Assembly: GCA_035525455.1 (NCBI GenBank)
Contig: DATLEF010000174.1
Coordinates: forward strand, 7,254 to 71,253
From: Burkholderiales bacterium
Lineage (GTDB): Bacteria > Pseudomonadota > Gammaproteobacteria > Burkholderiales > SG8-41
DNA length: 64,000 bases
Direction of reading: 5' to 3'
The notes beneath the pieces are model-generated. The model did not search any database. It worked only from the letters and a program-made list of their open reading frames with translations, and was not told the DNA's origin. Below are positions 11,556-54,093 of the stretch, piece by piece. A program made the translations under genes and the position numbers. Each line of letters begins with the position of its first letter. Position 1 is the first letter of the stretch.

Positions 11556-11804
11556 ATGACTCAATCCAAACTTTTTGACGACGAGCTGCAGGAAGCGATG
11601 CAACAGCTTTTCGACGAAACGATCGAAGCGATCCAGCTCGCCAAAGTCAGTCCGGACCTCGACGATCTAGCCGCCACATTCGCAGTGGCGCTTCTGAAGC
11701 TCGGCCTCGCCACAGGATTCGTCGAGCAGCGTCACCCGGGATTTGCGAAGGACGTCGAGGAAAAGCGGCAGCGCGTCATTGCTGCTTTGACTCAGAAACA
11801 CTGA
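11556..11804 (+). CDS. hypothetical small acidic protein
   Basis: 82-aa ORF. It ends 5 nt before the GTG of the cysteine desulfurase, so translational coupling is possible. No family recognised. Confidence 0.45.
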   Translation: MTQSKLFDDELQEAMQQLFDETIEAIQLAKVSPDLDDLAATFAVALLKLGLATGFVEQRHPGFAKDVEEKRQRVIAALTQKH

Positions 11805-11809
11805 CGGCC

Positions 11810-20511: not shown

Positions 20512-20513
20512 GA

Positions 20514-20981
20514 TTACACCTCCTTCGCCGCACGTTCGATCGCGCGCACGATACGCACATACGTCCCGCAGCGGCAGATGTTCGGGCTCATGTACTCGAC
20601 GATCTCATCGCGCGAGGGCCGCGGCTTCTCCTTGAGCAGGCCCGCCGCGCGCATGATCTGGCCCGACTGGCAGTAGCCGCACTGAGGCACCTGCTCGGCT
20701 ATCCACGCTTTTTGCAGCGGGTGCTGGCCGCCGGGTGCAAGTCCTTCGATCGTGGTGATTCGGCGCCCGGCGATATCCTTGAATGCGTGCAGGCACGATT
20801 GCGTCGGCTTGCCGTCGAGATGCACGGTGCACGCGCCGCATTGTCCGACTCCGCAGCCGTACTTCGTGCCGGTCAACTTGAGATGCTCGCGCAACACCCA
20901 TAAGAGCGGTGTGTCTTCGTGCGCGGTGATGGTATGGCGCTGACCATTGACCGTCAGCGGTGCGGTGATTTTCTGGGTCAT
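20514..20981 (-). CDS. (2Fe-2S)-binding small subunit (IorA/CoxS-like)
   Basis: Trimmed to the ATG at 20981, preceded by AAGGAGG. Motifs [12 protein letters not shown] and CGYCQSG...CRCGTY. Confidence 0.85.
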
Positions 20982-21118
20982 GACCCCTCCTTGAGCACTG
21001 CTGAGCGCTCTCCTCGCCACTGCGGCGCCTGATCGGCGTCGTTATAATATGTTCTTCGTGCGCCGCGCTTCACCGTACGGAAGCGCAGCGGAAATTCTAG
21101 CGTATTGAAGGAACCTTC

Positions 21119-34782: not shown

Positions 34783-35754
34783 TCATTGCGCCGTGATCCC
34801 CGCCGCCTTTATGACTGGCGTCCACTTCGCCAGCTCGGCCTTGATGAAGGCGCGCATCTCTTCGGGTGTCGTAGGCGCAGCGATCGCTCCGAGCTTGAGT
34901 AGCGCCTCCTTCACGTCGGGCCGGTTGAAGCTGTCGTTGATTTCCTTGTTGAGCCTCGTGATGATGATCTGCGGCGTTTTCGCGGGCGCCATGATTCCAA
35001 ACCAGAGGAGCGCATCGAGTCCGGGAACGCCGGCTTCGGTCGCGCTCGGAATATCGGGCGTACCTGGAAAGCGTTGCAGGCTCGTGACTGTGAGCGCTTT
35101 TACCTTCTTCGCCTGAAGCTGCACGTGAGCCGTCACGGGAGAAAGGAACGCGAACTGCGTTTCGCCACTCAGCAGGCCCGTCAGCGCCGGCCCGGCGCCC
35201 TTGTACGGCACGTGCAGAAACTTGACGCCGCTCACGTTCATGAAAAGCTCGCCGGCGAGATGGCTGATCGTGCCGGCGCCCGCAGAACCCCACGGCACCG
35301 CATTGCCGCCTTTGGCCTTGCCGAGTGCGATCAGCTCCTGCACGGAATTCACGGGCACCGACGGATGCGTCACCAGCACGGTGACCCCTTTCATGAGCAG
35401 CGAGATCGGCGCGAAATCCCGTACCGGGTCGTAAGGCAGGTTCTTGAAGAGCGACACGGCCGAGACGTGTGTGCCCGCATGCGCGATCGTCAGCGTATAC
35501 CCATCGGGGACCGATTTCGCGACGATATCGGTGCCGATCGTGCCACCCGCACCGGCGCGGTTATCGACGATGAACTGCTGCCCGAGTCGCTCGGTCAGTT
35601 TTTGCGCGGTGAAGCGGGCGATCTGGTCGGATGTGCTTCCTGCCGACCCGGTGATCACGCGCACGGGGCGGGTTGGGTACTTGTCGGCGTCGGCTGCCAG
35701 GGCACTTGCCGCGGCCAACATGGTTCCGAGTACGGCCGCGATTTTCAATATCAT
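34783..35754 (-). CDS. Bug/TctC-family tripartite tricarboxylate transporter substrate-binding protein
   Basis: 323 aa. Signal peptide. Family motifs (DNRAGAGGTIG, PDGYTL, LPYDPVRDFAPIS, VPYKGAGPAL). Confidence 0.85.
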   Translation of the reverse strand: MILKIAAVLGTMLAAASALAADADKYPTRPVRVITGSAGSTSDQIARFTAQKLTERLGQQFIVDNRAGAGGTIGTDIVAKSVPDGYTLTIAHAGTHVSAVSLFKNLPYDPVRDFAPISLLMKGVTVLVTHPSVPVNSVQELIALGKAKGGNAVPWGSAGAGTISHLAGELFMNVSGVKFLHVPYKGAGPALTGLLSGETQFAFLSPVTAHVQLQAKKVKALTVTSLQRFPGTPDIPSATEAGVPGLDALLWFGIMAPAKTPQIIITRLNKEINDSFNRPDVKEALLKLGAIAAPTTPEEMRAFIKAELAKWTPVIKAAGITAQ

Positions 35755-35807
35755 TTGTCCTCCTCGTTATGTCAGCTCTTTGGGCGCGCTCGACTGGCGC
35801 GCTTGCG

Positions 35808-36769
35808 TCACTCCGCTTTCGCGCCGGACTCCTTCACGACCTTGCCGAGCTTGACCACTTCTGACCGTATGTATCTGTCGTATTCCTCCGGCGTCATCGG
35901 CATCGGATCCGCACCCTGGTTCTGGAGCTGCCCTGCGACGTCCGGCAGGCGCAGGATCTTGACCACCGCGCCATTCAGCTTGTCGATGATCGGCTTGGGC
36001 GTACCGGCGACCGTGATCAGACCGAACCAGCCGTCGAATACGCAGTCGCGCACTCCCGCTTCGACCATGGTCGGCAGTTGCGGAAACGCCGACGAGCGTT
36101 TGCTGCTGCTCACCGCCAGGGCACGCACTCTACCGGCTTTAATGTGAGAGGACGCGAGTATCGCCGGCGCGAAGGTCATCTCGAGCCGGCCCGCGACGAT
36201 CTCCGTGATCGCCTCGGCGAATCCCTTGAACGGCACGTGCACGATACTGATTCCTGCAGTGCTGCGGAAGATCTCACCGTTGATGTGTGAATTGGAGCCG
36301 ATGCCCGCAGACGTATAGTTGAATGTCCCCGGTTTGGATTTGGCCAGAGCCACCAGCTCCTTCACGTTTTTTGCCGGCAGCGACGGGTGCACGATCAGGA
36401 TATTCGGTATCAGCGCGAGCGGCGTGATCCCCGCGAAATCCTCACCGGATCGAACGGCAGCTTGGTGTACAGCGTTGCGTTGATCGCGTGACTGGCCGAT
36501 ACGACGAGCAGCGTATATCCGTCTGGCGGGGCTTTCGCTACGACCGAGGTGCCGACGACACTGCCGGCGCCCGGCCGATTTTCAACGAGGACCTGCTGCC
36601 CCCACATTTCGGTGAGCTTCGGGCCGATCACGCGTGCGAGCGCGTCGGTTGCGCTTCCCGCGCCGAAAGGCACGACGATGCGGATGGGCTTCACCGGATA
36701 TTCCTGCGCATGCACCGCACCGGCCATGACGAGCGCGAGCGCCATAAGTTGGATTGCGAGACGAGTCAT
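35808..36769 (-). pseudogene. Bug/TctC-family substrate-binding protein, disrupted by a -1 frameshift near 36440
   Basis: Two consecutive ORFs (36410-36769 and 35808-36392) together make one Bug protein. Frame 1 reads ...LPFDPVR then ISRGSRRSR*. Shifting by one base after gtgagg restores ...DPVRDFAGITPLALIPNILIVHPSLPAKNV..., matching the family motif DPVRDFAP seen in the neighbour. This is consistent with one missing G. Confidence 0.7.
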
Positions 36770-38768: not shown

Positions 38769-38839
38769 GCTCCTCCGGGAGTTTTGCGGAAAGGATTGCG
38801 GATGCGGACGCGGTTTTGAGCAGGATGCTAGGGACGCAT

Positions 38840-38882
38840 GAACCAATTGTCAACGATTTGAACCAATTGACCGAATTGGTTC
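38840..38882. promoter_or_regulatory. candidate operator: three GAACCAATTG half-sites in the divergent promoter region
   Basis: gaaccaattg at 38840-38849 and 38860-38869, and an inverted copy gaattggttc at 38873-38882. The last two form aaccaatt-N5-aattggtt. Lies between the cluster's first gene (start 38768) and the GntR gene (start 38921). Confidence 0.45.
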
Positions 38883-38920
38883 GCCCGCTCACAATACTTC
38901 TCAAACAGGAGTCGAGGCTC

Positions 38921-39595
38921 GTGAATCGTGAAGCATCGCTCGCCGGCGCGAGACGCATACGCGATTACATTTTGAATGCGGCGCGGGAGCATCACGCGCC
39001 GGGCTCGCAACTTCCCACCGAGCGCGAGCTTGCGCGGCGCTTCAGCATGCCGCGCAATGCCGTGCGCAGGACGCTTGCGCAGCTCGAAGCAGAAGGCTCC
39101 ATTACGCGTCACGTGGGCCGAGGTACCTTTCTCGCCGGACGTATGGCGGTGGGCGCACCGGCTGCCGACGTCGCCGATGCGAGCCCGGCCGAGCTCATCG
39201 AAGCACGGCTGCGTATCGAGCCTGCGCTCGCCGAGCTCATCGTGACGAATGCGACCGCTGCCGATTTTCAGCGCATGGAAAGCTGCCTCGACAAAGCCGA
39301 GCGTGCGACGACGCTGGACGAGTTCGAAATGTGGGATGCGGCGCTCCATCAGGCGCTGGCAACGGCGACGCACAACCGCTTCGTCATTCGGGTCCTCGAT
39401 ATGGTGGCCGCCGTGCGCGAACAGGCTGAGTGGGGCAAGCTCAAGGACCGCATCGTCACGCCCGAGCGGCGCCTCAAGTATCAGGAGGAGCATCGCGCCA
39501 TTGTGCGGGCACTCAAAGAACGTGACGCCGAACGCGCGCGGGAGCGCCTGCTTGCACACTTGCAGCACGCCCGCCGCAATCTCTTCGAATACTAG
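38921..39595 (+). CDS. GntR-family transcriptional regulator, FadR subfamily (FCD domain)
   Basis: GTG at 38921, 9 nt after AGGAG, gives 224 aa, typical for the family (the track ORF starts at 38762). wHTH LPTERELARRFSMPRNAVRRTLAQLEAEGSI. All-helical C-terminal FCD-like domain. Confidence 0.8.
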   Translation: MNREASLAGARRIRDYILNAAREHHAPGSQLPTERELARRFSMPRNAVRRTLAQLEAEGSITRHVGRGTFLAGRMAVGAPAADVADASPAELIEARLRIEPALAELIVTNATAADFQRMESCLDKAERATTLDEFEMWDAALHQALATATHNRFVIRVLDMVAAVREQAEWGKLKDRIVTPERRLKYQEEHRAIVRALKERDAERARERLLAHLQHARRNLFEY

Positions 39596-39680
39596 CTCGC
39601 GACACGCTGGACTCGCCCGGGCAGACCCACTCCAAGTACAAGATTGAATTAAGTTATTCCCACTGCCCGGCGCTTCGCAT

Positions 39681-39703
39681 TCATCCACAATTTTTGTGGA
39701 TAA
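39681..39703. other. convergent pair of DnaA-box-like 9-mers
   Basis: tcatccaca (39681-39689, 8/9 match to TTATCCACA) and tgtggataa (39695-39703, a perfect box on the minus strand), separated by 5 nt. They lie inside an AT-rich patch of a convergent intergenic region. Confidence 0.35.
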
Positions 39704-39861
39704 CGCTGTGAGTAAATCACCCACCGCGGAGCTTTTCCGTCGTTGTCGCCGCGCGTTGGCGGACTGCACAAGATTTATGCATGCAAAGCTTCCGACGGTT
39801 TCGCGGAGTCGAGCTGCGCGCGCGAGAAGCGCGCCCGGCTGCTTCAGCGCGCCGCCGTGAG

Positions 39862-41883
39862 TTATCGCTTGAGGACGTGGAACAGATTGTAGAAATCATC
39901 CGTCCAGACGCGGAAATCCGGACGCGGCTTGAGCGCGATGGCCGCTGCCCGCACCGGCTTCGCCGCGAGCAGCGCGGCGTTGCGCGTGACGATGATCTGG
40001 TCGGTTTGCGACGTCCAGTACTCGAGGCCGTTACCCCCCACCGCGTCCTGAGGATCAGAGATCAGCACAGCTTGGAGACCGAATTCCGCGGCGAGGCGCT
40101 CCACGACCGGAGCGATGTCGACGAAGCGATTGGTCGCCTGAAAAACGATGACGCCTTCCGGCTTGAGGTGGCGCAGGTACCCGGCCATCGCCTCCCGCGT
40201 AATGAGGTGCATCGGTATCGAGTCGCCCGAGAATGCGTCGATCGCGAGCAGATCGTAATTCTGCGGCACTTCCCGCTCAAGTGACAGCCGGCCGTCGCCC
40301 AGCACGATATCGACTTTCGCCGGCGTGTCGCGCAGATAGCTGAATTCCGTCACCGCCACGGCCGCCACCTGCGGATCGATTTCGTAGAACCGAAAAAAAT
40401 CGCCGCTTCGGCCGTACGCCGCCAGCGCGCCCGCGCCGAGCCCGAGGATGCCGATTTTCCTCGGCGTTTGCGGCAGGCTTTCGAACACGCGGCCATAGGC
40501 GCTCGTGCGACTGAAATAAGTCGTCGGCAGACGCCGGTATGCCGGGTCGAGAAACTGGCCGCCGTGGTTGATGGCGCCGTGATACATGGCCCTGAAGGCA
40601 ACGGGTTGCGCAAAGTCGCGCGTGCGCACCACGCCGTAGAAATTCCGCACCATGACGCGCATATCGGTGCGGTAATCCCGCAAGCTGTAAAGAGCGCATG
40701 CGAAGGTTGCGACGCACACCGCGACAGCGCTTGAAGTCACCCACCACCGCGCCCCGCGCGCACGCCACGCAAAAAGCCACGCGCACAGCACGAGCGTGAT
40801 GGCGAGCTCGTAATAGCCGCGCAACAAAGTCGGCGCACCAATGCCGATTGCGAGGGCGCCCAACGCGCCGCCGACTGCGATCATCAGGTAGAAGGTGGTT
40901 AGATGCCGCGGGCCCGGGCGCAGCCGGTAAAGCTCGCCATGGCACACCATGCAACACACGAATAGACCCGCCGCATAAAGCGGCGCGGCGACCCACAGAT
41001 TGAGAGAGTCGCTGAACCACGCCATGGCAGGAAGCATCCCTGCCGCAAGCACGAGAAAAAGCGGCCTCACGTACCAGCGCGGGTGATCGAAACAAAAGAT
41101 GAAACTGATGAGATAGAGGCTGAGCGGCACGATCCAGAGAAACGGAATCGACGGTACGTTCTGCGTAAGGTGGTTGGTCACCGCGAGCAGTAGGCACGAG
41201 CCCATGGCCGCGAGGGCTACCCAAAGCAGGCGCTGCCGAAATGTCGGTTCCGCCGCAAGCGGTGCGGCGGATTCAGCGTTTTCTATTACGTTGCTCGAGT
41301 GGCGTAAGGTCGCCAGCGCAGTCGCACCGCACAGTAAGGCAAACGCCGCATAGGCAGCGGACCACCATACCGACTGGCGCACCAGCGTAAAGACCGGCTC
41401 GATCAGAACCGGATACGACAGCAGCGCGATCAGGGACGCCAGGTTGGACAGCGCGAAAAGCCGATACGGCACTTCATGATGATAGCGGCGCCAGAACCAC
41501 GCCTGCACCAGCGGGCTCGTCGCAGAGAGCAGAAAGTACTGAAGCCCTATGGTTGCTCCCAGAAGCGCGAGGATCGATAACGCGGGCCCGGTCGCTGCGT
41601 CCGCGCCCGGGCGCCAGCGCAGCTCCGGAATGATCGGCAATAGAGCGAGACTCACCGCGAGTAGAGTCACGTGCAGGGCGGCCGCGGTGCGCGGTTTTAG
41701 CGCGCGCGTGCTCCAGTCCGCGTAAGCGTAGCCGAACAGGAGCATGGTCTGAAAAAAAACGAGACATGTCGCCCACACCGACCCCGATCCGCCGAACCAC
41801 GGAAGGATCTGCTTGGCGATGATCGGTTGAACCAGGAAGAGCAGGAAGGCGCTGAGGAATATCGTCGCGGCGTACAGATGCAT
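39862..41883 (-). CDS. fused polytopic membrane domain / spermidine-synthase-like (class I SAM-MTase fold) protein
   Basis: 673 aa. About 12 N-terminal TM helices, then an aminopropyltransferase-like C domain (ILGLGAGALAAY, YEIDP, DLLAIDAFSGDSIPMHL). Confidence 0.8.
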   Translation of the reverse strand: MHLYAATIFLSAFLLFLVQPIIAKQILPWFGGSGSVWATCLVFFQTMLLFGYAYADWSTRALKPRTAAALHVTLLAVSLALLPIIPELRWRPGADAATGPALSILALLGATIGLQYFLLSATSPLVQAWFWRRYHHEVPYRLFALSNLASLIALLSYPVLIEPVFTLVRQSVWWSAAYAAFALLCGATALATLRHSSNVIENAESAAPLAAEPTFRQRLLWVALAAMGSCLLLAVTNHLTQNVPSIPFLWIVPLSLYLISFIFCFDHPRWYVRPLFLVLAAGMLPAMAWFSDSLNLWVAAPLYAAGLFVCCMVCHGELYRLRPGPRHLTTFYLMIAVGGALGALAIGIGAPTLLRGYYELAITLVLCAWLFAWRARGARWWVTSSAVAVCVATFACALYSLRDYRTDMRVMVRNFYGVVRTRDFAQPVAFRAMYHGAINHGGQFLDPAYRRLPTTYFSRTSAYGRVFESLPQTPRKIGILGLGAGALAAYGRSGDFFRFYEIDPQVAAVAVTEFSYLRDTPAKVDIVLGDGRLSLEREVPQNYDLLAIDAFSGDSIPMHLITREAMAGYLRHLKPEGVIVFQATNRFVDIAPVVERLAAEFGLQAVLISDPQDAVGGNGLEYWTSQTDQIIVTRNAALLAAKPVRAAAIALKPRPDFRVWTDDFYNLFHVLKR

Positions 41884-43313: not shown

Positions 43314-45434
43314 TCACACGAGCGCCGAGATGAGGCGCTCGCGCGTGAAGGGCATATCCCGCAATCGCACTTTCAGCGCGTTGTAACACGCGTTGCCGAT
43401 CGCTGCTGCCGTGGGTCCCTGCATGCCCTCTCCCGCGCCTAGCGGCGGAAGCTCCGGGCGATCGATGAATGCAACCTCGATGTTGGGCACTTCCGGAAAT
43501 GTGAGTATCGGATATGTATCCCAATTGCGCGTCGTTACGGAATGTCGGTCGTAATCGATACGCTCCTTCAGCGTCCAGCTTATCGTCTGCACGATGCCGC
43601 CTTCGATCTGATTGACCACACCGTCTGAATTGATCACCTGGCCCACGTCTACCGCTGCCCAAGCGCGCGTGACTCGTACCATTTCCGCGACGGCGACTTC
43701 GACGATCACAGCGGCATAGCAGCCGAGATTCTTGTAACGCGCAAAGCCGATCCCGCGGCCGTGTTCGCCGTCCCCGTGCTCGCGCGGCCGCCAATCGGCC
43801 ATTGCTGCCGCCTTCTCGATCACTGCTCGCGCCCGGGCATCCTTGAGGTGGCGCAGGCGGAATTCGACGGGATCGGCGTCCGCAGCCTGCGCGAGCTCAT
43901 CCATGAACGACTCGATCGCGAACACGTTCACGTGACCGCCCAGCGATCGCAATGCCGAAGTGCGAAGCGGCGCGGCGCGTACAAGATGGTTGGTCACACG
44001 TTGCTGCGGAAAATCGTAAAGCGGCGCGGCATTGCGATGGCTGCCGCCGGCCGGCAATGGCGGATTAGCTGGACGCGCAGCGGTGACGGGCTTGGCAAGA
44101 TGCCAAGCCGCGAGCAGATTCACGCCGCCTTTGCCTCCCGGACGCGTGCTGTGGGCGTGGCTCCACAATTCATGCGCCCATGTCGCAACGCCACCGTCGG
44201 CGCCGAGTGTGGCCTGCATGCGCACCACCATCGGCGAGCCGAACGGTTCCCAGGCGAACTCGTCTTCGCGCATCCACTGTACGCGCACGGGCCGCTCCGG
44301 CAACGCACGCGCGAACAGCACTGCGTCGCACGCCACGTCGTCCGCGGCGTTGTGACCATAGCATCCCGCGCCTTCCATATGCACGACATCAAATGCGTTT
44401 TCTGAAATGCCGAGCGCTGAAGCAAGATCCGCCCGCAACGGAAATATTCCCTGGCTGTGGGTCCACAGCGTATATCGAGCCTGACTGAATTGCGCCACCG
44501 CGCACGAGGGGCCAAGCGAAGCATGAGCAATATGAGGACGCGTGAACTCGGCGGTGAAAACGCGCGCATCCGGCGCTGCGCCGCCGGCGCCTTTTTCGCT
44601 CACCACTTCCTCTTCGCTTACGCACTCGAGCAAATAACGCGGGTCGCTCGCCGGTAACGCGCCGCCGCCGTGCCAGCGCGCAACGCGCTCGAGCCGGCGG
44701 GCCGCACGGATCGCCTGCTCTTCGCGCTCGGCGATGACGCCGAGGAACGAGCCGTCGCGCACGATTTTGATCACGCCCTGCATCGTCTCGACTTCGTGCA
44801 CTTCGACGCTGTCGAGCTGCATACCCGGGCCCGGCGGCCGCACGACGCGCGCGTGCACCATGCGCGGCAAATCGAGATCGTGCACATACACCGGATCTCC
44901 ACGCACTTTGGCGGGAATATCGATGCGGTCGAGTCGCCGGCCAACCAGCCAATAGTCCTCAGCGGGTTTCGGCTGAGTGGCGGTGCTTGCGTCGCGCCTG
45001 AGCAGCGATTCGTCGGCGAGCTCCCAGTAGGTGACGCTTCCGCCGGCGCGCGCCGTGATTACGCCGTCTTTGACCGAGAGCTGCTCCACCGACACGTCGA
45101 GCTTTGCCGCTGCACGCGCAAGCAGGAGCTCGCGCGCTTCAGCAGCCGCAAAACGCAGCGCAATACCGCTTTCCTGGATCGAGCGGCTGCCGGAGGTGAT
45201 ACCTTCGTTGGGACTCAACGGAGTCGCCGCGCCGACGAGCCGGATACGCTCGGGACCGATATCGAGCTCTTCGGCCACGATCTGCACCAGCGCAGTCAGT
45301 ATTCCTTGTCCGATCTCGACTTTGCCCGGCCGAACCGTGACCGTGCCATCGGCGTTGATTGCGAGCCACAGATCGAGCGCCGGATTCGTCTCGAGGCTGC
45401 CGGGCAGTTTGCGCGGGGCTGGAGCGACGCTCAT
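43314..45434 (-). CDS. xanthine-dehydrogenase-family molybdopterin-binding subunit (IorB-like, no Tat leader)
   Basis: 706 aa. N-terminus ...INADGTVTVRPGKVEIGQGILTAL.... Moco-binding domain motifs. ATGA overlap with the upstream 2Fe-2S gene. Confidence 0.85.
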   Translation of the reverse strand: MSVAPAPRKLPGSLETNPALDLWLAINADGTVTVRPGKVEIGQGILTALVQIVAEELDIGPERIRLVGAATPLSPNEGITSGSRSIQESGIALRFAAAEARELLLARAAAKLDVSVEQLSVKDGVITARAGGSVTYWELADESLLRRDASTATQPKPAEDYWLVGRRLDRIDIPAKVRGDPVYVHDLDLPRMVHARVVRPPGPGMQLDSVEVHEVETMQGVIKIVRDGSFLGVIAEREEQAIRAARRLERVARWHGGGALPASDPRYLLECVSEEEVVSEKGAGGAAPDARVFTAEFTRPHIAHASLGPSCAVAQFSQARYTLWTHSQGIFPLRADLASALGISENAFDVVHMEGAGCYGHNAADDVACDAVLFARALPERPVRVQWMREDEFAWEPFGSPMVVRMQATLGADGGVATWAHELWSHAHSTRPGGKGGVNLLAAWHLAKPVTAARPANPPLPAGGSHRNAAPLYDFPQQRVTNHLVRAAPLRTSALRSLGGHVNVFAIESFMDELAQAADADPVEFRLRHLKDARARAVIEKAAAMADWRPREHGDGEHGRGIGFARYKNLGCYAAVIVEVAVAEMVRVTRAWAAVDVGQVINSDGVVNQIEGGIVQTISWTLKERIDYDRHSVTTRNWDTYPILTFPEVPNIEVAFIDRPELPPLGAGEGMQGPTAAAIGNACYNALKVRLRDMPFTRERLISALV

Positions 45435-45895
45435 GTCGGCGCTCCTTCACCGGCAGAACGGATCGCGCGCAACATACGCGTATGCGTGCCGCACCGGCAG
45501 AGGTTTCCCGCAAGCGCGGCGCGGATCTCGTCCTCGCGCGGATGCGGGTTTACGTCGAGCAACGCTTTTGCCGTCATGATGATGCCGCTTACGCAATAGC
45601 CGCATTGCGCGGCCTGCTCGGCTATGAACGCGCGCTGCAGCGGGTGCGGCCGATCCGGCGTTCCTATGCCTTCGATCGTCGTGATCGACTTTCCCGCGAC
45701 GGCGCTCACCGGTACATCGCATGACTGCACCGCTTTGCCATCGACGATGACCATGCACGCGCCGCACAAACCCTGTCCGCAGCCAAAGCGCGAGCCTTTC
45801 AGCCTGAGGTCGTTGCGCAGCACATAGAGAAGCGGCGTTTCCGGTTCGGCCGCGACCGTATGGGCCGCCCCGTTCACATGGATTACGAGCGACAT
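45431..45895 (-). CDS. (2Fe-2S)-binding small subunit
   Basis: 154 aa. GCGQGLCGACMV and CGYCVSG...CRCGTH motifs. Confidence 0.85.
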   Translation of the reverse strand: MSLVIHVNGAAHTVAAEPETPLLYVLRNDLRLKGSRFGCGQGLCGACMVIVDGKAVQSCDVPVSAVAGKSITTIEGIGTPDRPHPLQRAFIAEQAAQCGYCVSGIIMTAKALLDVNPHPREDEIRAALAGNLCRCGTHTRMLRAIRSAGEGAPT

Positions 45896-47434: not shown

Positions 47435-47524
47435 AACTTGCATGGCAGTGGCTCTCACGCTTTCGTGCGTACCGCGCCTGATAACATCGGTCGCGTCCAT
47501 CCGACGCCGGTGATTGACGTATCG

Positions 47525-48085
47525 ATGCAGCAGCCCCATCCCGCCTATACCCCCACCGCGATCGGCCTGCACTGGATCATCTTTTTTCTGATTGCGTGCG
47601 CGTGGCCGCTCGGTCAGTTCGTGTCCGGCCTGCCGTTTTCGCCGCAGAAGCTGCGCTTAATCGCATGGCACAAATGGATAGGCGTCACCGTTTTCATGCT
47701 GGCACTCCTGCGGCTCGCGTGGCGCCTTTATCGCCCGCCGCCACCGCTCCCGTTGAGCGATCTGCAGCGGCGCGCGGCAGGCGCCGTACATGCGTTGCTG
47801 TACGCGTTGATAATCCTGATCCCGATCAGCGGCTGGCTTTTCAGCTCGGCAGCGGGTGTGCCCACCGTCTACCTCGGCTTGATTCAATTGCCCGATCTTC
47901 TGCACAAAGACAAGGCGCTCGCGCAAACGCTCAACCAGGTACACGCGACGCTGAACTGGACGTTACTGGTGCTCGTATGCGGACATGCCGGGTTTGCGCT
48001 GAAGCATCACCTGGTCGATCGAGACGGCGTGCTCGTGCGCATGATCCCGCGACTCAAGGTCCGAAAATCAGAGAGTCCGTCATGA
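47525..48085 (+). CDS. cytochrome b561 family protein
   Basis: Trimmed to the ATG at 47525, giving 186 aa. TAIGLHWIIFFLI, HKWIGV and H...H heme-ligand spacing. ATGA overlap with yceI. Confidence 0.8.
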   Translation: MQQPHPAYTPTAIGLHWIIFFLIACAWPLGQFVSGLPFSPQKLRLIAWHKWIGVTVFMLALLRLAWRLYRPPPPLPLSDLQRRAAGAVHALLYALIILIPISGWLFSSAAGVPTVYLGLIQLPDLLHKDKALAQTLNQVHATLNWTLLVLVCGHAGFALKHHLVDRDGVLVRMIPRLKVRKSESPS

Positions 48086-48651
48086 AATGCAGCTCACTCG
48101 CCCTGATCGTTTTGTTTGGCTTCAATCCGCAAACAGTCCTGGCCCAGGCGATCGATTACGCGCGCAGCCAGATCACCGTCCAGTCGCGCCAGATGAATGT
48201 TCCTGTCGAAGCGCCGTTCACGAAATTCAACGCACAAATCGTGTTCGACCCGTTACGGCTGGAAGCATCCTCGGCACGCGTGGATATCGATCTTGCGAGC
48301 TTCGATATCGGCGATGCCGACGTGAACGAAAACGTCCGGGATCGCAACTGGTTCGACACGAAAAATCACCCGATTGCACGCTTTGTTTCCTCTTCGATAC
48401 GTTCTCTCGGAGGAGGCCGCTTTGAGGTGCGCGGACCGCTCACGATCAAAGGCAAGACACAGGAAGTCGCAGGACCGTTCACACTCAAGACGAATGGCGC
48501 CGACCGTGTTTTCGAAGGCGCTTTTGCAATACGCCGCCTGCAGTACAGCGTGGGCGACGGCGTGTGGCGCGATACGAGCGTCGTGGCCGACGAAGTGCAG
48601 GTCAAGTTCCGGCTATATCAGCTCGGGCAGAAGCCTGCGTCGAAGAAATGA
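48082..48651 (+). CDS. yceI: YceI-family periplasmic polyisoprenoid-binding protein
   Basis: ATG at 48082, giving 189 aa. Signal peptide MKCSSLALIVLFGFNPQTVLA/QA. YceI motifs (HPIARF, LTIKGKTQEV). The pairing with cytochrome b561 is classical. Confidence 0.85.
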   Translation: MKCSSLALIVLFGFNPQTVLAQAIDYARSQITVQSRQMNVPVEAPFTKFNAQIVFDPLRLEASSARVDIDLASFDIGDADVNENVRDRNWFDTKNHPIARFVSSSIRSLGGGRFEVRGPLTIKGKTQEVAGPFTLKTNGADRVFEGAFAIRRLQYSVGDGVWRDTSVVADEVQVKFRLYQLGQKPASKK

Positions 48652-48677: not shown

Positions 48678-50879
48678 TCAAGCGCTCCGGATGGTCATTC
48701 GGTTCAACGTCACATAATCGGTTTTGCCGCTGCCGAGCAGGGGCAGCGACGCTACTTTCACGATGCGCCGGGCGACCGCCAGATCCTGTGCGCCGATCTG
48801 GCGCGCAGCTTCCACGAGCATCAGTCGATCGAGACGCGGATCGGTCGTAAAGAGAACCGTGCTTTCACCCCTACCGCTGATCTGCTCGACGGTGGCGGCG
48901 TGCTTGTGCTCGGACGATGCCGCATAGGCAATGCGCTCTACGAGCTCGAGCGATACCATTTCACCGGCTATTTTCGCGAAGCGCTTCACCCGTCCGAGTA
49001 TCGTCAAGTAACCGTCCTCGTCCACTTCGACCACGTCGCCGGTGTTGTACCAGCCTGTTCCCACTTCGGAGCGTGGCGGATGCAACACGCCCGGCTGCTC
49101 GTAGAAATAGTACCCGGTCATCAGATGGGGACTGCGGACGTGAAGCGCGCCGCCGCGCGCGATGCCGGCCACGGGGACGAGCCGCCACTCGACGCGCGGG
49201 AGGAACCGCCCAACGCTGCCTTCACGGTACGCGAGCGGCGTGTTCAGCGCGATCGTGGGTCCGCACTCGGTCGCGCCATATCCCTCCATGATGCGCAGCC
49301 CGAACTTCGTCGCCCACAACCTCTCGACCTCCGGATTGAGCTTTTCTCCGCCGGACACGACAACCCGCACGCGATAGAAATCGTACTCGTGCGCCTGGCG
49401 CGCATAGTGGCCGAGAAAAGTGCTGGTACCGAAGACATACGTGCAGTCCCGGGTGTACGCGAATTCGGGTATGAGACGATAGTGGAGCGGCGTCGTGTAC
49501 AAAAAAAGCCGCGTGCCGCTGAGTATCGGCATCAGGGTGCAGGCCGTGAGGCCGTAGGTGTGATACATCGGCAGCGCATTGAGGTACTTGTCGTTCGCGC
49601 CAAAGTCGATCACCGCGCGCATCTGCGCCATGTTCGCAAGCATGGAATCGTGTGAAATCGCGACTCCTTTGGAACGTGCCTCCGATCCGGACGTGAACAG
49701 TATGACCGCGACCGCAGCGGGATCCTGCTGCGGAAAAGACGAGCGCGGACGCAGCATTGCGCGCAGGATCCATAGCTTGTCGCGCGTGCGCAAGCTCATC
49801 CGCAAGTCTTCGAGATACACGAGATTCACGGACTGCAGGGCCCGCACGCTGGCCTCGAGGCGCGCGACCTGCACGAAACGGCGCGAGGTGATGACTGTTC
49901 GCACGCCCGCGGCGACGCACGCAGCGCTCATTGCCTCAGGCCCGGCGCTATAGTTGAGCATTGCAGCGACGCGGCGCATCGCCGTGAGCCCGAAAACGAG
50001 CGCAACGGTGGTCGAAAGATTCGGCAGCATGACGCCGACAATTTCGCCTTCTGCGCTCACGCGCGAGGTCAATCGCGCAAGCGCAAGCGCGGTTTTCAGC
50101 AGTGTTCCGTACGTCTCCGGCTGCTGCCGCGCGTCTTCGATGATCGGCGTCGAACGGCCATGCAGGGTTGCGGCGTCCAGCAAGGCCTCGAACAATGTCT
50201 GTTTGCGTCTCGCGTCGACCATCATCCGCTGCAGGATGGACAGCATTTCGTCCGCAAGAGCGCGCCGCCGCTGGCGGCCGCTGAGACCCGGTTTCATGGT
50301 TATTTCGACCGGAGCCTGCACGTGCAGCGTGACGCGCGGGAACCACCGCTTCGGTGCCGCGCCCCCGACTGCGGACCCATGCGAATACAGCGTTCCGCCG
50401 ATGTGCACCGGGACGATACGCGCGTCGCTGCGCGCCGCGATGAGCCCCGCTGAGTCGTAGATTTTCATCACGGTGCCGGTAGTCGAAACGCGACCCTGAG
50501 GAAAGATCGCCACCGTCTCGCCTCGCTGCACTTGCCGAACCAGACGCTTGAGGGCGAGTGGCCGCGAGGGATCGAGCACTACGAAATTCAGCGTGCGCCC
50601 GAACAGTCGCACGAGGGGGTTTCGCACCGCTTCCGGCGTGACCACGACGGTAGTCACTCGCGTGAGGAACAAACCGAGCAGCACCCCGTCGAATAGCGAG
50701 TCGTGATTCGCGACCACGAGTGTCCGACCCGCACCCAAGGCCCCGAGGTCGCCCTCCACCCGCACCCGCAGCAGCGCGCGCAAGCTTGAGCGCAAAAGCG
50801 TGCGTATCACTTTAACAATCGCTTTTAAGTATCTGAGTTTGTGCAGATAGCTTTTACTTTGTCTCGTTTCTGCCGTCAA
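48678..50879 (-). CDS. aas: bifunctional 2-acylglycerophosphoethanolamine acyltransferase / acyl-ACP synthetase (Aas)
   Basis: 733 aa, collinear with E. coli Aas as I remember it. HX4D acyltransferase motif NHDSLFD. IFPQGRVSTTG. AMP-binding ILFTSGSEARSKGV. YGATECGP. C-terminal PLLGSGKTDY. The track start is a TTG at 50879. A GTG at 50810 gives an N-terminus that matches the E. coli protein's length before RVRV(E/T)GD. Confidence 0.85.
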   Translation of the reverse strand: MTAETRQSKSYLHKLRYLKAIVKVIRTLLRSSLRALLRVRVEGDLGALGAGRTLVVANHDSLFDGVLLGLFLTRVTTVVVTPEAVRNPLVRLFGRTLNFVVLDPSRPLALKRLVRQVQRGETVAIFPQGRVSTTGTVMKIYDSAGLIAARSDARIVPVHIGGTLYSHGSAVGGAAPKRWFPRVTLHVQAPVEITMKPGLSGRQRRRALADEMLSILQRMMVDARRKQTLFEALLDAATLHGRSTPIIEDARQQPETYGTLLKTALALARLTSRVSAEGEIVGVMLPNLSTTVALVFGLTAMRRVAAMLNYSAGPEAMSAACVAAGVRTVITSRRFVQVARLEASVRALQSVNLVYLEDLRMSLRTRDKLWILRAMLRPRSSFPQQDPAAVAVILFTSGSEARSKGVAISHDSMLANMAQMRAVIDFGANDKYLNALPMYHTYGLTACTLMPILSGTRLFLYTTPLHYRLIPEFAYTRDCTYVFGTSTFLGHYARQAHEYDFYRVRVVVSGGEKLNPEVERLWATKFGLRIMEGYGATECGPTIALNTPLAYREGSVGRFLPRVEWRLVPVAGIARGGALHVRSPHLMTGYYFYEQPGVLHPPRSEVGTGWYNTGDVVEVDEDGYLTILGRVKRFAKIAGEMVSLELVERIAYAASSEHKHAATVEQISGRGESTVLFTTDPRLDRLMLVEAARQIGAQDLAVARRIVKVASLPLLGSGKTDYVTLNRMTIRSA

Positions 50880-51098
50880 ACCCGCGTACTAGAGTGTGTT
50901 GGTAACCCGCCACACCCACAGTTTGTGCATACAAAGTCCTTTAGCGCGAAGGACCACCATAGGTAGTGTTAGAGGCTATTCCTCAAGAAGAAAAGAGAAA
51001 TCTATCAATTTGTTAGATTTGCTTTTTAAGCAGTGCTGTCCTTTAATCTTCAACGAATAGTGTGAACTTATTCCTATAAAAGCCCGGAGATTACTCAC

Positions 51099-52028
51099 AT
51101 GGAAATGCGCATCCCTGCCGCCCTGCTCGATCCGCGCCAGCAGCCCGCCAGCACCCCCATTCCACGCGGTATCGAATTCTCGATATCTCCACAGCTGACG
51201 GCTCACTTCGATAAAGAGCAGCGCGCGATGTGGTCTCACTGGAGCGCCGAGCCGAGGCCTTGTTTCAATCCGAGCCTGTTGGCGGACATCCGCTCGTACT
51301 ACGAATTTCTTTCGCAAACGGACGGTCACGTCATGTGCGACGGAGAAGAGCATCCGCTCGAATACGTCGTGCTGGCCTCGGGCATGCAGGGCGTGTTCAA
51401 TCTCGGCGGCGATCTGGACCTCTTCAAACAACTCATCGGTGCGCACGACCGGTCGGGGCTGCAGCGCTACGGGCGCGCCTGCATCGACGTGCTGTTTCGC
51501 AATTACATCGCACATGAGCTGCCCGGCGTGACCACCATATCGCTCGTTCAGGGTGAATGCCTTGGAGGGGGCTTCGAGGCAGCGCTTTCGTCGGACGTGA
51601 TCGTGGCGGAAAAAAGCTCGCGATTCGGCTTCCCCGAGATCCTCTTCAATCTTTTTCCCGGCATGGGCGCGTATTCATTCCTCGACCGCAAGGTCGGACA
51701 AAAGGCCGCGGAGGCGATCATCACCAGCGGAAAGATCTACACCGCCGAGGAAATGCACGCACTGGGTGTCGTCGACGTCGTCGCCGAGGACGGCCAGGGT
51801 GAGGCGGAAGTCGCGGCGCTCATCAAGAAGCGCGCACGCATGCGCAATGGACTTTCAGCGCTCGCCGCGACCCGCCGTCGCGTGCATTCGATCACATTCG
51901 AAGAATTGCTAGACGTGGTCCAGATCTGGGTCGACGCGGCGCTGCGAGTGAACTTGAGGGATCTCAAGCTGATGCAGCGGCTGGTGTCGCGCCAGAACGG
52001 CATGAACGATCCGCAGCAGATGCATTAG
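51099..52028 (+). CDS. rpfF: crotonase-superfamily DSF-family signal synthase (RpfF / DfsA-like)
   Basis: 309 aa. EPRPCFN, FNLGGDL, GGGFEAAL (Glu160) and GFPEILFNLFPGMGAYS (Glu180). The two catalytic Glu are 20 residues apart, as in characterised RpfF. C-terminal DLKLMQRLVSRQN. Confidence 0.8.
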   Translation: MEMRIPAALLDPRQQPASTPIPRGIEFSISPQLTAHFDKEQRAMWSHWSAEPRPCFNPSLLADIRSYYEFLSQTDGHVMCDGEEHPLEYVVLASGMQGVFNLGGDLDLFKQLIGAHDRSGLQRYGRACIDVLFRNYIAHELPGVTTISLVQGECLGGGFEAALSSDVIVAEKSSRFGFPEILFNLFPGMGAYSFLDRKVGQKAAEAIITSGKIYTAEEMHALGVVDVVAEDGQGEAEVAALIKKRARMRNGLSALAATRRRVHSITFEELLDVVQIWVDAALRVNLRDLKLMQRLVSRQNGMNDPQQMH

Positions 52029-52161
52029 AGGAGATCGGTCCGGACGCCAAATCCGCAGTCGCCCGCGCGCCGAGGCTTTGATACACTCCCGCGCGAATCA
52101 GGCCCTATATTATGAGAGGCCGCTGACGCTGCAGTAAGGGCTCCGCTTATCTACGCAAGAT

Positions 52162-54093
52162 ATGGAATACAGCATACAGGACGTGTCCGGTCTTCTGGGT
52201 ATACCGATCCAGAAGCTGCGCCGTTGGGACGAACAGGGCGTCCTGGTCGCTCTGCGGACGTCCGGCGGGCATCGCCGCTATTCGAAGGAGCTCATCGACC
52301 GGCTCGCCGCATCGGGTTTGAGCGCAAGCGCGGAAAAAACATCGCAGGAGCTCGCGACCGTGAAGCGCGCTCTCGCCGAGAAACGCCGCATCATTCAGCT
52401 GCTGCTCGAAAGCGAGAACCGCTACCGCGATCTGGTCGAGACCTCGCACGATCTCATCTGGGCCACCGACTCGCAGGGCCGTTTCACGTACCTCAATACC
52501 GCCGCGCAGGACATTTTCGGGCTCGCGCCCAAAGACCTCATAGGGCGCTGCTTCTTTAATTTCGAGGCCGGCGCGGCGCACATCGCCAACCGCCGTTTTC
52601 TCGCAACGCTGCGCAAGGGCGGAGAGGTCAAGAACTATGTGACGCACGTGTTGACCGCAGGCGGCGAAAACCGCTGGATCGGCATCAACGCCCGTCTCAC
52701 GCACGACGAAAATGGCGACGTGCTCGGCATACGCGGCACGGCCCGCGACATTACCGAGCAGCACCTCGCCACGCAGCGCATCGAACATCTCGCGCTTCAC
52801 GACCCGCTCACCGACCTCCCCAACCGTCACGCGCTGCAGATCCGCATCGAGCAGGCGCTCGGTGAGGACGCAGTCGGCGCACTCATCTTTTTCGACATCG
52901 ATCACTTCAAGTACGTCAACGACAACTTTGGTCATCGCTCCGGCGATCAGCTGATCGTGGGCGTTGGCAGCGTCTTGCGCGACATCACCCGCCCCTGCCA
53001 CGGCGAGCTTTACCGGCTGGGCGGGGATGAATTTGCAATCCATCTGCCGGACGCCCTGCGCAAGCACGCGAAGGAAACTGCCGAAAGCGCGCTCGACGCC
53101 GTCCGGCACTACCGTTTTCACGCGAGCGACCAGCGCATCGTGTCCAATCTCTCGGTCTCCGCCGGTATTGCGCTCTATCCGTTCCACGGCAGCGATGTGC
53201 CGGGCCTTTTCTCCAACGTCGACATTTCGATGTATCAGGCGAAAGAGCTGGGCCGCAATCGTTACGTGCTGTTCGATCAGGCATCCGATAACCTGCGCAG
53301 CACGCATAAGCGCATCCATTGGGCCAAGCGTCTGCGCGATGCGCTCGACGAGGACCGCATCACGCTTTTTGCGCAGCCGGTCGTGCGCTTGAGCGATCAG
53401 AAAACGGTGCATCACGAAGTCCTCGTGCGGCTGCGTGACGATGCGGGCGGCCTCATCATGCCGTCGACCTTCATCGAGCTGGCCGAGTCGCTCTCACTGA
53501 TCCAGGAAATCGATTATCAGGTGGTCGACAAGCTGCTCGCATTCATGCGCGAGCACGATCAGATCGGCCGCAAGGTGCGTTACTTCGTGAACCTGTCGCG
53601 GGTCTCGATTTCGGACCAACGCTGGATCAGGCGCTTCGTGTCGCTGCTGAAGACGAGCAGCATCGATCCGAGCCAGCTCGTTTTCGAGATCACGGAAACG
53701 GCGGCGATGTCCGAAATCGACGTGACGCTCACGTTCATCAACAAGCTGAAGGACATGGGTTGCCGTTTCGCTCTCGACGATTTCGGCGCCGGTTTCAGCT
53801 CCTTCTACTATCTCAAGCGCTTCGAAGTCGATTACCTCAAGATCGACGGGAGCTTCATCCGCGACCTGGCGACGGACGAAGGAAGCCGTCTATTCGTGCG
53901 CGCGTTGAACGACGTGGCGCAGGGGCTTTCGAAGCAGGTCGTCGCGGAATGGATCGAATCGCCGGAGGTGCTGAAGCTGCTCGTGCAAATGGGCGTGCAG
54001 TTCGGCCAGGGTTATCTCTTCCGCAAGCCCGTGCCCATCGAAGAGACGCTCGTGCTTCCCGCTTCTCGCGTATTGCAGGCTCGCATCGGCTGA
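52162..54093 (+). CDS. MerR/BldC-type HTH - PAS - GGDEF - EAL multidomain protein (RpfR/PdeR-like with fused DNA-binding domain)
   Basis: 643 aa. aa 1-48 read MEYSIQDVSGLLGIPIQKLRRWDEQGVLVALRTSGGHRRYSKELIDRL (HTH). PAS spans about aa 86-205. GGDEF is intact (nt 53020-53034). EAL domain motifs EVLVR, FEITE, DDFGAG, LKID, EWIE and GQGY are present. Confidence 0.85.
   Translation: MEYSIQDVSGLLGIPIQKLRRWDEQGVLVALRTSGGHRRYSKELIDRLAASGLSASAEKTSQELATVKRALAEKRRIIQLLLESENRYRDLVETSHDLIWATDSQGRFTYLNTAAQDIFGLAPKDLIGRCFFNFEAGAAHIANRRFLATLRKGGEVKNYVTHVLTAGGENRWIGINARLTHDENGDVLGIRGTARDITEQHLATQRIEHLALHDPLTDLPNRHALQIRIEQALGEDAVGALIFFDIDHFKYVNDNFGHRSGDQLIVGVGSVLRDITRPCHGELYRLGGDEFAIHLPDALRKHAKETAESALDAVRHYRFHASDQRIVSNLSVSAGIALYPFHGSDVPGLFSNVDISMYQAKELGRNRYVLFDQASDNLRSTHKRIHWAKRLRDALDEDRITLFAQPVVRLSDQKTVHHEVLVRLRDDAGGLIMPSTFIELAESLSLIQEIDYQVVDKLLAFMREHDQIGRKVRYFVNLSRVSISDQRWIRRFVSLLKTSSIDPSQLVFEITETAAMSEIDVTLTFINKLKDMGCRFALDDFGAGFSSFYYLKRFEVDYLKIDGSFIRDLATDEGSRLFVRALNDVAQGLSKQVVAEWIESPEVLKLLVQMGVQFGQGYLFRKPVPIEETLVLPASRVLQARIG

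Follow-up and report, generated by a model that had tools for sequence, protein, structure and literature searches.

The window analysed here is a 64,000-nucleotide stretch of a Burkholderiales contig (DATLEF010000174.1), and the gene under study is an open reading frame (ORF) on its plus strand for a putative DSF-type synthase (DSF, diffusible signal factor). The ORF starts with ATG and encodes a crotonase-fold protein of 309 aa. On the upstream side lies the divergent gene of an Aas-like enzyme. On the downstream side, in the same direction as the synthase gene, lies the gene of a protein composed of helix-turn-helix (HTH), PAS, GGDEF and EAL domains, followed by a NUDIX gene on the minus strand and by nuoN, nuoM and nuoL. 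A palindrome, which is a candidate operator, was found in the divergent promoter region. The coordinates of all features are collected in Table 1.

The motifs named in the original prediction for the synthase were located exactly: EPRPCFN at residues 51-57, FNLGGDL at 100-106, GGGFEAAL at 156-163 and FPEILFNLFPGMG at 178-190. The protein matched Pfam ECH_1 (7.7e-22) and also ECH_2. Two glutamates, Glu160 in GGGFEAAL and Glu180 in FPEILFNLFPGMG, stand 20 residues apart; the same spacing was found in the reconstructed sequences of the solved proteins 5fus, 7zq7 and 3m6m, and the two residues aligned with the Glu pairs of all three. For 3m6m, which is RpfF of Xanthomonas campestris (Xcc), the chain positions 157 and 177 become Glu141 and Glu161 after subtraction of a 16-residue tag, and the equivalence with this pair that had been proposed from the letters alone was borne out. 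Glu160 and Glu180 were invariant in 30 of 30 members of the clade to which the synthase belongs.

A search of all solved structures with the synthase gave RpfF/DfsA structures in the four leading places: 5fus (named by its depositors Putative enoyl CoA hydratase and presumed here to be DfsA of Burkholderia cenocepacia; E 6.8e-51), 6dgn (named RpfF; E 9.2e-51), 7zq7 (named Crotonase family protein and sharing 82% identity with Xcc RpfF; E 3.8e-50) and 3m6m (E 3.7e-49). The next crotonase was EchA1 (3qxi) with an E-value of 6e-15, so that some 35 orders of magnitude separated the RpfF/DfsA structures from generic crotonases. The synthase shared 36% identity with DfsA and 39% with Xcc RpfF, the same distance as between those two proven synthases (37%).

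The pocket of Xcc RpfF is formed by Gly85, Leu136, Gly137, Gly138, Met170, Trp258 and Leu276 (PMC9864630), and identical residues occupied all seven positions in the synthase (G103, L155, G156, G157, M189, W277 and L295). The neighbouring Gly86 and Gly169 of Xcc RpfF correspond to G104 and G188, so that 11 of the 11 mapped residues, nine published pocket or catalytic residues and these two glycines, were conserved. The mapped pocket and catalytic positions were invariant or nearly so across the 30 clade members. The Escherichia coli proteins PaaF, PaaG and CaiD deviated at the positions of Met, Trp, Gly86 and Gly138, and lacked the RpfF-specific residues seen in the synthase as Met189, Trp277, Gly104 and Gly157. 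The acyl-pocket residues whose loss had been named beforehand as a sign against an RpfF-type enzyme were therefore all present, together with both Glu.

Two NCBIfam models, NF006452 (cut-off 177 bits) and the 'RpfF' equivalog NF053515 (cut-off 550 bits), were compared. The synthase scored above the cut-off of NF006452 (349.6 bits) and below that of NF053515 (205.9 bits), as did DfsA (400.5 and 184 bits), while Xcc RpfF passed both (408.5 and 562 bits); two homologues linked to rpfC/rpfG gave 367-411 bits with NF006452 and 238-257 bits with NF053515. Since DfsA, a proven synthase, fails NF053515 and passes NF006452, the latter was regarded as family-wide and the former as specific to the Xanthomonas type. 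The low NF053515 score thus excludes only the Xanthomonas subtype for the synthase, and not the function of a DSF synthase.

A neighbour-joining (NJ) tree was built from 212 sequences, including diverse representatives of 50% clusters, homologues encoded at the compared loci, reference proteins and E. coli outgroups. The synthase, Xcc RpfF and DfsA were grouped apart from the generic crotonases PaaF, PaaG and CaiD in 100 of 100 bootstraps, and the assignment to RpfF/DfsA-like proteins instead of generic hydratases held in the phylogenetic placement as well as in the structure matches and NF006452. The nearest relatives outside the clade by distance included synthases linked to rpfC/rpfG; a specific sister group among the rpfFCG-type synthases found no support (bootstrap 26/100). 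Judged from these comparisons, the protein very probably belongs to the RpfF/DfsA family of DSF synthases, and homology suggests that it would release a cis-2-enoic acid. On its own this identification is a routine addition to a known family, because automatic pipelines already call homologues 'DSF synthase': close homologues carry this label at JGI and 'crotonase/enoyl-CoA hydratase family protein' at NCBI.

The N-terminus of the synthase, MEMRIPAALLD, follows the pattern M-[ED]-M-x-[IV]-P-x-A-x-L, which is common to the whole clade and precedes a variable linker of about 12 residues. This conservation throughout the clade indicates that translation truly begins with the ATG at 51099. Relatives sharing about 50% identity could be aligned with the synthase only from residue ~32, and by these alignments the motif is a clade-specific feature. 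The alignment with DfsA began at residue 16 of the synthase and residue 7 of DfsA (about 9 extra residues), and that with Xcc RpfF at residue 37 and native residue 20 (about 17 extra residues). An N-terminal extension, as suspected before, was therefore present, while its supposed length of about 30 residues was reduced to 9-17.

The neighbourhood was compared by tblastn, with the proteins of the window, in 80 related genome loci. Where a full-length synthase of at least 54% identity was encoded, the order Aas-like(-)/synthase(+)/HTH-PAS-GGDEF-EAL(+)/NUDIX(-)/nuoN(-) was found in every locus, as far as the contig reached. About 40 genome loci carried this module (L001-L038, L040, L049 and L058; synthase 54-83% identical), and it occurred likewise on dozens of metagenome contigs. 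The hosts were all uncultured Burkholderiales/Betaproteobacteria known from metagenome-assembled genomes, with one Pelomicrobium among them. Three loci (L004, L009 and L038) were titled 'uncultured Streptomycetaceae bacterium', yet they carried the module of betaproteobacterial type with a nuoN of 72-76% identity, and these bins are probably mislabelled or contaminated.

Those relatives that were about 50% identical (Thiobacillus, Sulfuriferula, Sideroxydans, Methylophilaceae, Thioalkalivibrio, Chromatiaceae and other taxa) were without the Aas-like and HTH-PAS-GGDEF-EAL partners. By BLAST cluster, about 30 of 39 of them had a gene for an RpfC-type kinase placed convergently after the synthase gene, usually followed by a gene of RpfG size; in L044 Pfam gave HisKA-HATPase-REC-Hpt and REC-HD_5/HD-GYP for this pair, that is, canonical rpfC/rpfG. 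The HTH-PAS-GGDEF-EAL module thus takes the place that rpfC/rpfG hold beside the synthases of most of the closest outside relatives. Within the 64-kb window no RpfC- or RpfG-like gene was found, either by tblastn with the L044 proteins of these types or in a Pfam survey of the other genes, which were metabolic, and the earlier statement that rpfC/rpfG are missing from the window was correct. The context had also been called non-canonical. This applies to the lack of rpfC/rpfG, but the synthase is not an orphan, because the next gene encodes PAS-GGDEF-EAL, the same core domains as RpfR; neither this gene, with its fused MerR-type HTH, nor the divergent Aas-like gene had been mentioned in the original prediction.

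The spacer between the synthase gene and the downstream gene measured 16-262 bp in orthologous loci. As the spacer in the window is short and without a terminator-like site, co-transcription of both genes is likely, and the synthase gene would be the first of a probable two-gene operon. In three loci an additional gene was inserted between the two, with both flanking genes intact: an IS200-like Y1 transposase in L007, an ORF of 262 aa in L008 that looked homologous and held the same position, and a protein of 549 aa without Pfam match in L005.

The downstream gene encodes a one-component protein whose MerR-type HTH scored 39.9 bits with MerR_1 (cut-off 21.6) and 38.1 bits with MerR (cut-off 28.2). 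The HTH aligned with the winged HTHs of TipA and CarH, and the nearest NCBIfam models were HspR, BldC, CarH and excisionase-type HTHs. A specific homology to MlrA was rejected, for HspR, BldC and CarH matched best and MlrA only with an E-value of 0.004. In an AlphaFold2 model of residues 1-207 (mean predicted local distance difference test, pLDDT, 83.6) a winged HTH was seen at residues 1-50, then a long helix (53-93) and, at 98-196, a PAS fold, and together Pfam and the model gave the layout of MerR-family transcription factors, an HTH followed by a dimerisation helix. PAS (0.80) and HTH (0.78) were the most conserved domains across 26 orthologues, and the recognition region QKLRRWD...GGHRRY was invariant across the clade. 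When the N-terminus was searched in 5.8 billion proteins, the combination of HTH and PAS was found only in this clade, mostly as truncated fragments, and more distant architectures did not come into view. No DSF receptor with MerR fused to PAS-GGDEF-EAL was described in the literature of the one library searched.

The EAL catalytic residues E419, N477, E509, E512, D539, D540, K560, E599 and Q616 were essentially invariant in the 26 orthologues, and an active phosphodiesterase for cyclic di-GMP (c-di-GMP) is therefore predicted. The GGDEF motif (287-291) was intact in the protein of the window and in 22/26 orthologues, and no RxxD I-site was found in its GGDEF domain. In the remaining 4/26 the motif was degenerate (G-E-D-Q-F type) with EAL residues still intact, so part of the clade may do without cyclase activity.

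RpfR of the Burkholderia DSF (BDSF) system binds its ligand in the PAS domain by Ser169, Asn172, Tyr183, Arg187 and Asn202 (RpfR_Ct), and E. coli PdeR has been named as an rpfR homologue (PMC6361424). The downstream protein shared 31% identity with PdeR from the PAS domain onward only, and the N-terminus of PdeR was without similarity. When the PAS domain of the downstream protein was aligned by hhalign with the PdeR PAS (probability 91%), two of the five RpfR residues were matched, Tyr by Y159 and Asn202, the Asn in contact with C3 of BDSF, by the invariant N176. With residues 1-207 as the query, no fragment of RpfR appeared among the phmmer matches in the PDB up to an E-value of 10. The protein is not an RpfR orthologue, because the FI domain is absent, the gene is co-directional with the synthase gene and only the Tyr and Asn202 are matched. 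Its role as the cognate sensor and output of the synthase, which gene context suggests, is possible but tentative.

The divergent region between the synthase and Aas-like genes is 219 bp long and has 42% GC, versus 62% for the window. Its palindrome, AAATCTATCAATTTGTTAGATTT, occurs only once in the window, where chance would give 0 copies. Essentially every module locus had a single copy, 101-178 bp (mostly 101-147) upstream of the synthase ATG, with conserved arms and a variable centre, and none was found in the rpfFCG-type loci examined. A putative sigma-70 promoter was predicted next to it, and its -35 and -10 positions were conserved across loci as TTG(C/A)TT and, 17 nt on, TTTAAT/TCTAAT/TAGAGT. 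A scan for consensus promoters gave nothing in the divergent region, the predicted elements being below its stringency. At its right edge the palindrome shares only two bases with the predicted -35, namely the first two, and it is centred near -45. The classical MerR geometry, with the operator within a 19-20-bp spacer between -35 and -10, was looked for on either strand and not found. HspR- and CarH-type members of the MerR family are not known to use this geometry.

Metagenome contigs were scanned for the exact palindrome pattern, which gave at least 120 matches, and 80 loci with 82 sites were examined. A synthase gene lay 75-137 nt downstream of 55 sites, six sites had too little contig downstream and 21 were elsewhere. 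The palindrome also stands in front of other signalling genes, and so behaves like an operator with a small signalling regulon. The fused MerR-type HTH was the only DNA-binding domain among the genes surveyed by Pfam, and its pairing with the palindrome may be proposed tentatively from this context, the Crp-like protein mentioned below being an equally formal candidate. Co-variation of HTH and operator was examined in loci with a divergent receptor and a degenerate left arm (L011, L013, L014, L016 and L017), where the recognition helix and the right arm were invariant and the comparison was uninformative.

On six contigs the palindrome was observed 66-126 nt upstream of a Haem_oxygenas_2/TENA-like gene for an 'iron-containing redox enzyme' (~295-312 aa), oriented as it is at the synthase, and in 5/6 of them a PAS-PAS-GGDEF-EAL gene (~850-1000 aa) lay just upstream of the palindrome. 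This iron enzyme gene is a possible member of the regulon. Fatty acids can be substrates of haem-oxygenase-like iron enzymes. In Herbaspirillum (L065) Pfam recognised a Haem_oxygenas_2 gene directly upstream of an RpfF-like gene on the same strand, and in Noviherbaspirillum (L053) the gene at position -1 of an RpfF-like gene falls into the same BLAST cluster; these two cases are an independent association of the family with DSF-type synthases. Two further contigs carried the palindrome 87 nt upstream of a gene for a Crp-like regulator (236 aa), and another two next to a gene for PAS-GAF-HisKA-HATPase-REC, close to which lies a REC-Fis-HTH gene. A contig of 9424 bp (L130) showed two palindromes in mirror positions with identical end distances and flanking matches, and it resembles an assembly artefact of the self-inverted (hairpin) kind.

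Between the predicted -10 and the ATG, a CRP-like repeat, (T/C)GTGA-N6-TCAC(A/G), was observed 48-90 nt upstream of the ATG in 10/38 loci. In the window it is degenerate, with only the TGTGA half-site left. As a core part of the module, GTGA-N6-TCAC was rejected on account of both facts. An Rfam scan of the window gave no family at threshold.

The Aas-like protein scored 814.1 bits on the Aas equivalog NF005959, versus a cut-off of 886, with both domains present. At the genome loci and on the metagenome contigs its gene was invariably divergent from the synthase gene, with which it shares the operator-bearing promoter region. In Xanthomonas, RpfB re-activates free fatty acids. By analogy, the Aas-like enzyme is a possible functional counterpart of RpfB and may re-activate free fatty acids freed by the thioesterase activity of the synthase. 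A pair of genes for a cytochrome b561 (Ni_hydr_CYTB) and YceI adjoins the Aas-like gene. Farther away in the window, two separate clusters for molybdopterin-binding oxidoreductases were observed, as well as four ORFs with coding-like GC content at third codon positions (GC3) for which no Pfam match was found at E up to 1e-5.

Table 1. Location of the features in the window and, where a locus number is given, in related genome loci and metagenome contigs.
Feature	Location	Strand	Remarks
Aas-like acyltransferase + acyl-ACP (acyl carrier protein)/AMP-forming ligase	48678..50879	-	~733 aa, start uncertain; Pfam Acyltransferase + AMP-binding
23-bp palindrome AAATCTATCAATTTGTTAGATTT, candidate operator	50998..51020	.	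10-N3-10; divergent promoter region, ~100 bp upstream of synthase
Putative sigma-70 promoter of synthase operon	51019..51047	+	predicted; -35 TTGCTT 51019-51024, 17-nt spacer, -10 TTTAAT 51042-51047
Degenerate CRP-like repeat	51059-51074
Ribosome-binding site	51086-51089		GGAG
RpfF/DfsA-family DSF synthase candidate	51099..52028	+	Pfam, NCBIfam, structure matches, alignment, NJ tree
Synthase-receptor spacer	52029..52161	+	133 bp, no terminator-like site
One-component MerR-HTH + coiled-coil helix + PAS + GGDEF + EAL protein	52162..54093	+	643 aa; candidate sensor/output
MerR-type HTH	52168..52308	+	residues 3-49; Pfam MerR_1, TipA/CarH alignments, NCBIfam
PAS	52420..52752	+	residues 87-197; Pfam
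GGDEF	52792..53262	+	residues 211-367; Pfam
EAL	53326..54030	+	residues 389-623; Pfam
Cytochrome b561 and YceI genes	47438-48651
Oxidoreductase cluster	43314-45895	-	MoCoBD large subunit + 2Fe-2S small subunit
Oxidoreductase cluster	18259-21020	-	second MoCoBD protein at 18259-20511
ORF without Pfam match	39862-41883	-	672 aa
ORF without Pfam match	38828-39769	-	312 aa
ORF without Pfam match	35074-36147	+	357 aa
ORF without Pfam match	11792-12970	-	391 aa
Insertion between synthase and receptor genes	L007 3738-4505		IS200-like Y1 transposase
Insertion between synthase and receptor genes	L008 3921-4709		262-aa ORF
Insertion between synthase and receptor genes	L005 5646-7295		549-aa protein
Palindrome at Haem_oxygenas_2 gene	L087 834-857, L091 5542-5565, L120 7347-7370, L121 4917-4940, L124 1170-1193, L140 650-673
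Haem_oxygenas_2 gene of Herbaspirillum	L065 5150-5791
Palindrome at Crp-like regulator gene	L162 1277-1300, L163 6842-6865
Palindrome at PAS-GAF-HisKA-HATPase-REC gene	L126 2576-2599, L150 2112-2135
Palindromes of 9424-bp contig	L130 3632-3655	-
Palindromes of 9424-bp contig	L130 5770-5793	+
CRP-like repeat	L001, L003, L006, L007, L009, L012, L019, L034, L037, L038

These features could be explained together by a DSF synthase encoded in a probable two-gene operon with its proposed HTH-PAS-GGDEF-EAL sensor and output, a reading for which there is a reasonable, if modest, balance of probability. The synthase would dehydrate 3-hydroxyacyl-ACP and then hydrolyse the thioester by means of Glu160 and Glu180, and the product would be a cis-2-unsaturated fatty acid of the DSF family. 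The PAS domain of the downstream protein would sense this fatty acid or a linked cue, and its EAL domain would degrade c-di-GMP, like the outputs of both known DSF pathways (the HD-GYP protein RpfG and the EAL protein RpfR). The fused HTH would couple the signal directly to transcription, as in the 'trigger phosphodiesterases' PdeL and PdeR-MlrA, and its binding to the palindrome at the synthase promoter would give a feedback loop. In its strongest form, the MerR-HTH/PAS/GGDEF/EAL protein would have replaced RpfC/RpfG as a third DSF architecture which senses the signal, hydrolyses c-di-GMP and itself binds the operator before the synthase operon and before a small regulon (the haem-oxygenase-like iron enzyme, the Crp-like regulator and a hybrid kinase); this wider claim is doubtful at present. 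The synthase motif M-E/D-M-x-I/V-P-x-A-x-L could replace the synthase-receptor contact that is made by REC in RpfC or by FI in RpfR.

Several points weigh against this explanation, in which every functional step rests on homology or context. The downstream protein begins with the MerR-type HTH and a coiled coil and has no FI domain, unlike RpfR, and the Ser, Asn and Arg ligand residues of RpfR aligned with A139, A142 and V163, leaving three of five unmatched; conserved H140, N143 and R144 stand one position off these sites, and the PAS domain may yet bind a ligand. In a Foldseek search with the AlphaFold2 model, the top matches were generic PAS domains of LOV, NifL and FixL type and no RpfR PAS was within the top 50; since such light-sensing (LOV), flavin adenine dinucleotide (FAD) and haem PAS types are generic, the ligand is not revealed by the fold. 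The similarity of the protein to RbdA is no smaller than that to PdeR/RpfR. The absence of rpfC/rpfG covers the 64-kb window, and RpfC/RpfG or RpfR may be encoded elsewhere in the genome. The whole region from aas to nuoN is collinear across the clade, so the genes may have stayed adjacent by descent instead of by functional coupling. Branching within the synthase family was poorly supported in the NJ tree (26/100 replicates for the rpfFCG sister, 75/100 for monophyly of the clade). As to the operator, the palindrome lies, relative to the predicted promoter, outside the classical MerR position in a 19-20-bp spacer, and the predicted spacer is 17 nt; the palindrome also precedes the gene of the Crp-like regulator, which is possibly its true binder, and co-variation cannot decide the binder because HTH and palindrome are both invariant.

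Some of these points would also be expected if the synthase were a true DSF synthase and its neighbour an unrelated sensor of redox state, oxygen or light, with the real receptor encoded elsewhere. The structural closeness of the PAS domain to LOV, FAD and haem types and the conservation of only 2/5 RpfR ligand residues agree with such a neighbour, adjacency alone is weak evidence in a region that is syntenic across the clade up to nuoN, and the insertions in L005, L007 and L008 separated the two genes with neither being lost. On the other hand, both genes read in one direction across a short spacer that lacks a terminator-like site, rpfC/rpfG stand exactly at the position of the fusion protein in most of the closest relatives outside the clade, and hydrolysis of c-di-GMP is the output of both known DSF pathways (PMC6361424). 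An unrelated neighbour was accordingly regarded as unlikely, though it deserves to be taken seriously.

The synthase and the Aas-like enzyme might instead form a lipid-remodelling pair, by which fatty acids are released and re-esterified into phospholipid and a diffusible signal is not the selected function. The invariable divergent arrangement with the shared operator-bearing promoter region would suit such a pair, as would the promiscuous cleavage of acyl-ACP by RpfF enzymes (PMC6361424). It was judged very unlikely, given that the pocket residues of signal synthases are all conserved and that the synthase family is otherwise tied to dedicated receptors; in Xanthomonas, moreover, the fatty-acid-activating enzyme RpfB encoded next to rpfF coexists with signalling. 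Still less room was left for an ordinary enoyl-CoA hydratase/isomerase of fatty-acid beta-oxidation, which the matches to ECH_1/ECH_2 and the generic NCBI annotation of homologues would allow. The width of the E-value gap, the bootstrap separation, the four RpfF-specific residues and the lack of beta-oxidation genes adjacent to the synthase gene all speak against it and make it highly improbable.

The operon reading, with the synthase and the HTH-PAS-GGDEF-EAL protein as partners, would have several consequences if true. Two receptor solutions for DSF are known, one with RpfC/RpfG (Xanthomonas and relatives) and one with RpfR (Burkholderia and Cronobacter), and both end in c-di-GMP hydrolysis; the synthase family would then have repeatedly recruited different c-di-GMP phosphodiesterases. 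Receptor, second-messenger enzyme and transcription factor would be merged in one polypeptide, giving a compact and testable circuit from signal to promoter, with a defined operator and regulon for the construction of reporters. Communication of DSF type would also extend well beyond pathogens, as the hosts are abundant uncultured Burkholderiales of soil and groundwater.

Among the known systems, the Xanthomonas campestris RpfF/RpfC/RpfG system (with RpfB) shares with the window a synthase of the same family (39% identity, 11/11 mapped residues) and a fatty-acid-activating enzyme encoded beside it. It differs in that neither a hybrid kinase RpfC nor an HD-GYP protein RpfG is encoded in the window, the activating enzyme here is a fusion of Aas-type acyltransferase and acyl-ACP ligase instead of a FadD-type CoA ligase, and the synthase scores below the cut-off of the equivalog NF053515. 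DspI of Pseudomonas aeruginosa is a further protein of crotonase fold and the proposed maker of a cis-2-enoic acid signal. PDB entry 5wyb, which is taken to be this cis-2-decenoic acid synthase (PA0745), matched distantly (E 1.3e-11), about as well as generic enoyl-CoA hydratases do, and the synthase is not of DspI type.

The RpfF/RpfR pair is the BDSF system of Burkholderia cenocepacia and Cronobacter turicensis, in which rpfF and rpfR are convergent and the FI domain of RpfR (residues 1-95, PAS-like) binds and inhibits RpfF (PMC6361424). Like this pair, the locus combines an RpfF-family synthase with a single cytoplasmic PAS-GGDEF-EAL protein whose EAL is intact; DfsA is the best solved match to the synthase (E 7e-51, 36% identity), and Y159 and N176 correspond to the Tyr and Asn in the ligand pocket of RpfR. 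Unlike the convergent rpfF and rpfR, the two genes are co-directional with a 133-bp spacer, three of the five ligand residues are unconserved, and the identity to PdeR is limited to 31% from the PAS domain onward.

The trigger phosphodiesterases PdeL, composed of a LuxR-HTH and EAL, and PdeR, which acts on the MerR-like MlrA in the PdeR-DgcM-MlrA module (PMC5052742), resemble the downstream protein in coupling a c-di-GMP phosphodiesterase directly to DNA binding, with the MerR-type HTH being fused to it here. Unlike MlrA, this HTH belongs to the HspR/BldC/CarH type, and its likeness to MlrA is only marginal (E 0.004); PdeL is without PAS or GGDEF, and neither PdeL nor PdeR is described as linked to a DSF synthase. 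What is new beside all these systems is the lineage-specific context of the synthase, namely a DNA-binding PAS-GGDEF-EAL protein in the place of RpfC/RpfG or RpfR, together with a defined operator.

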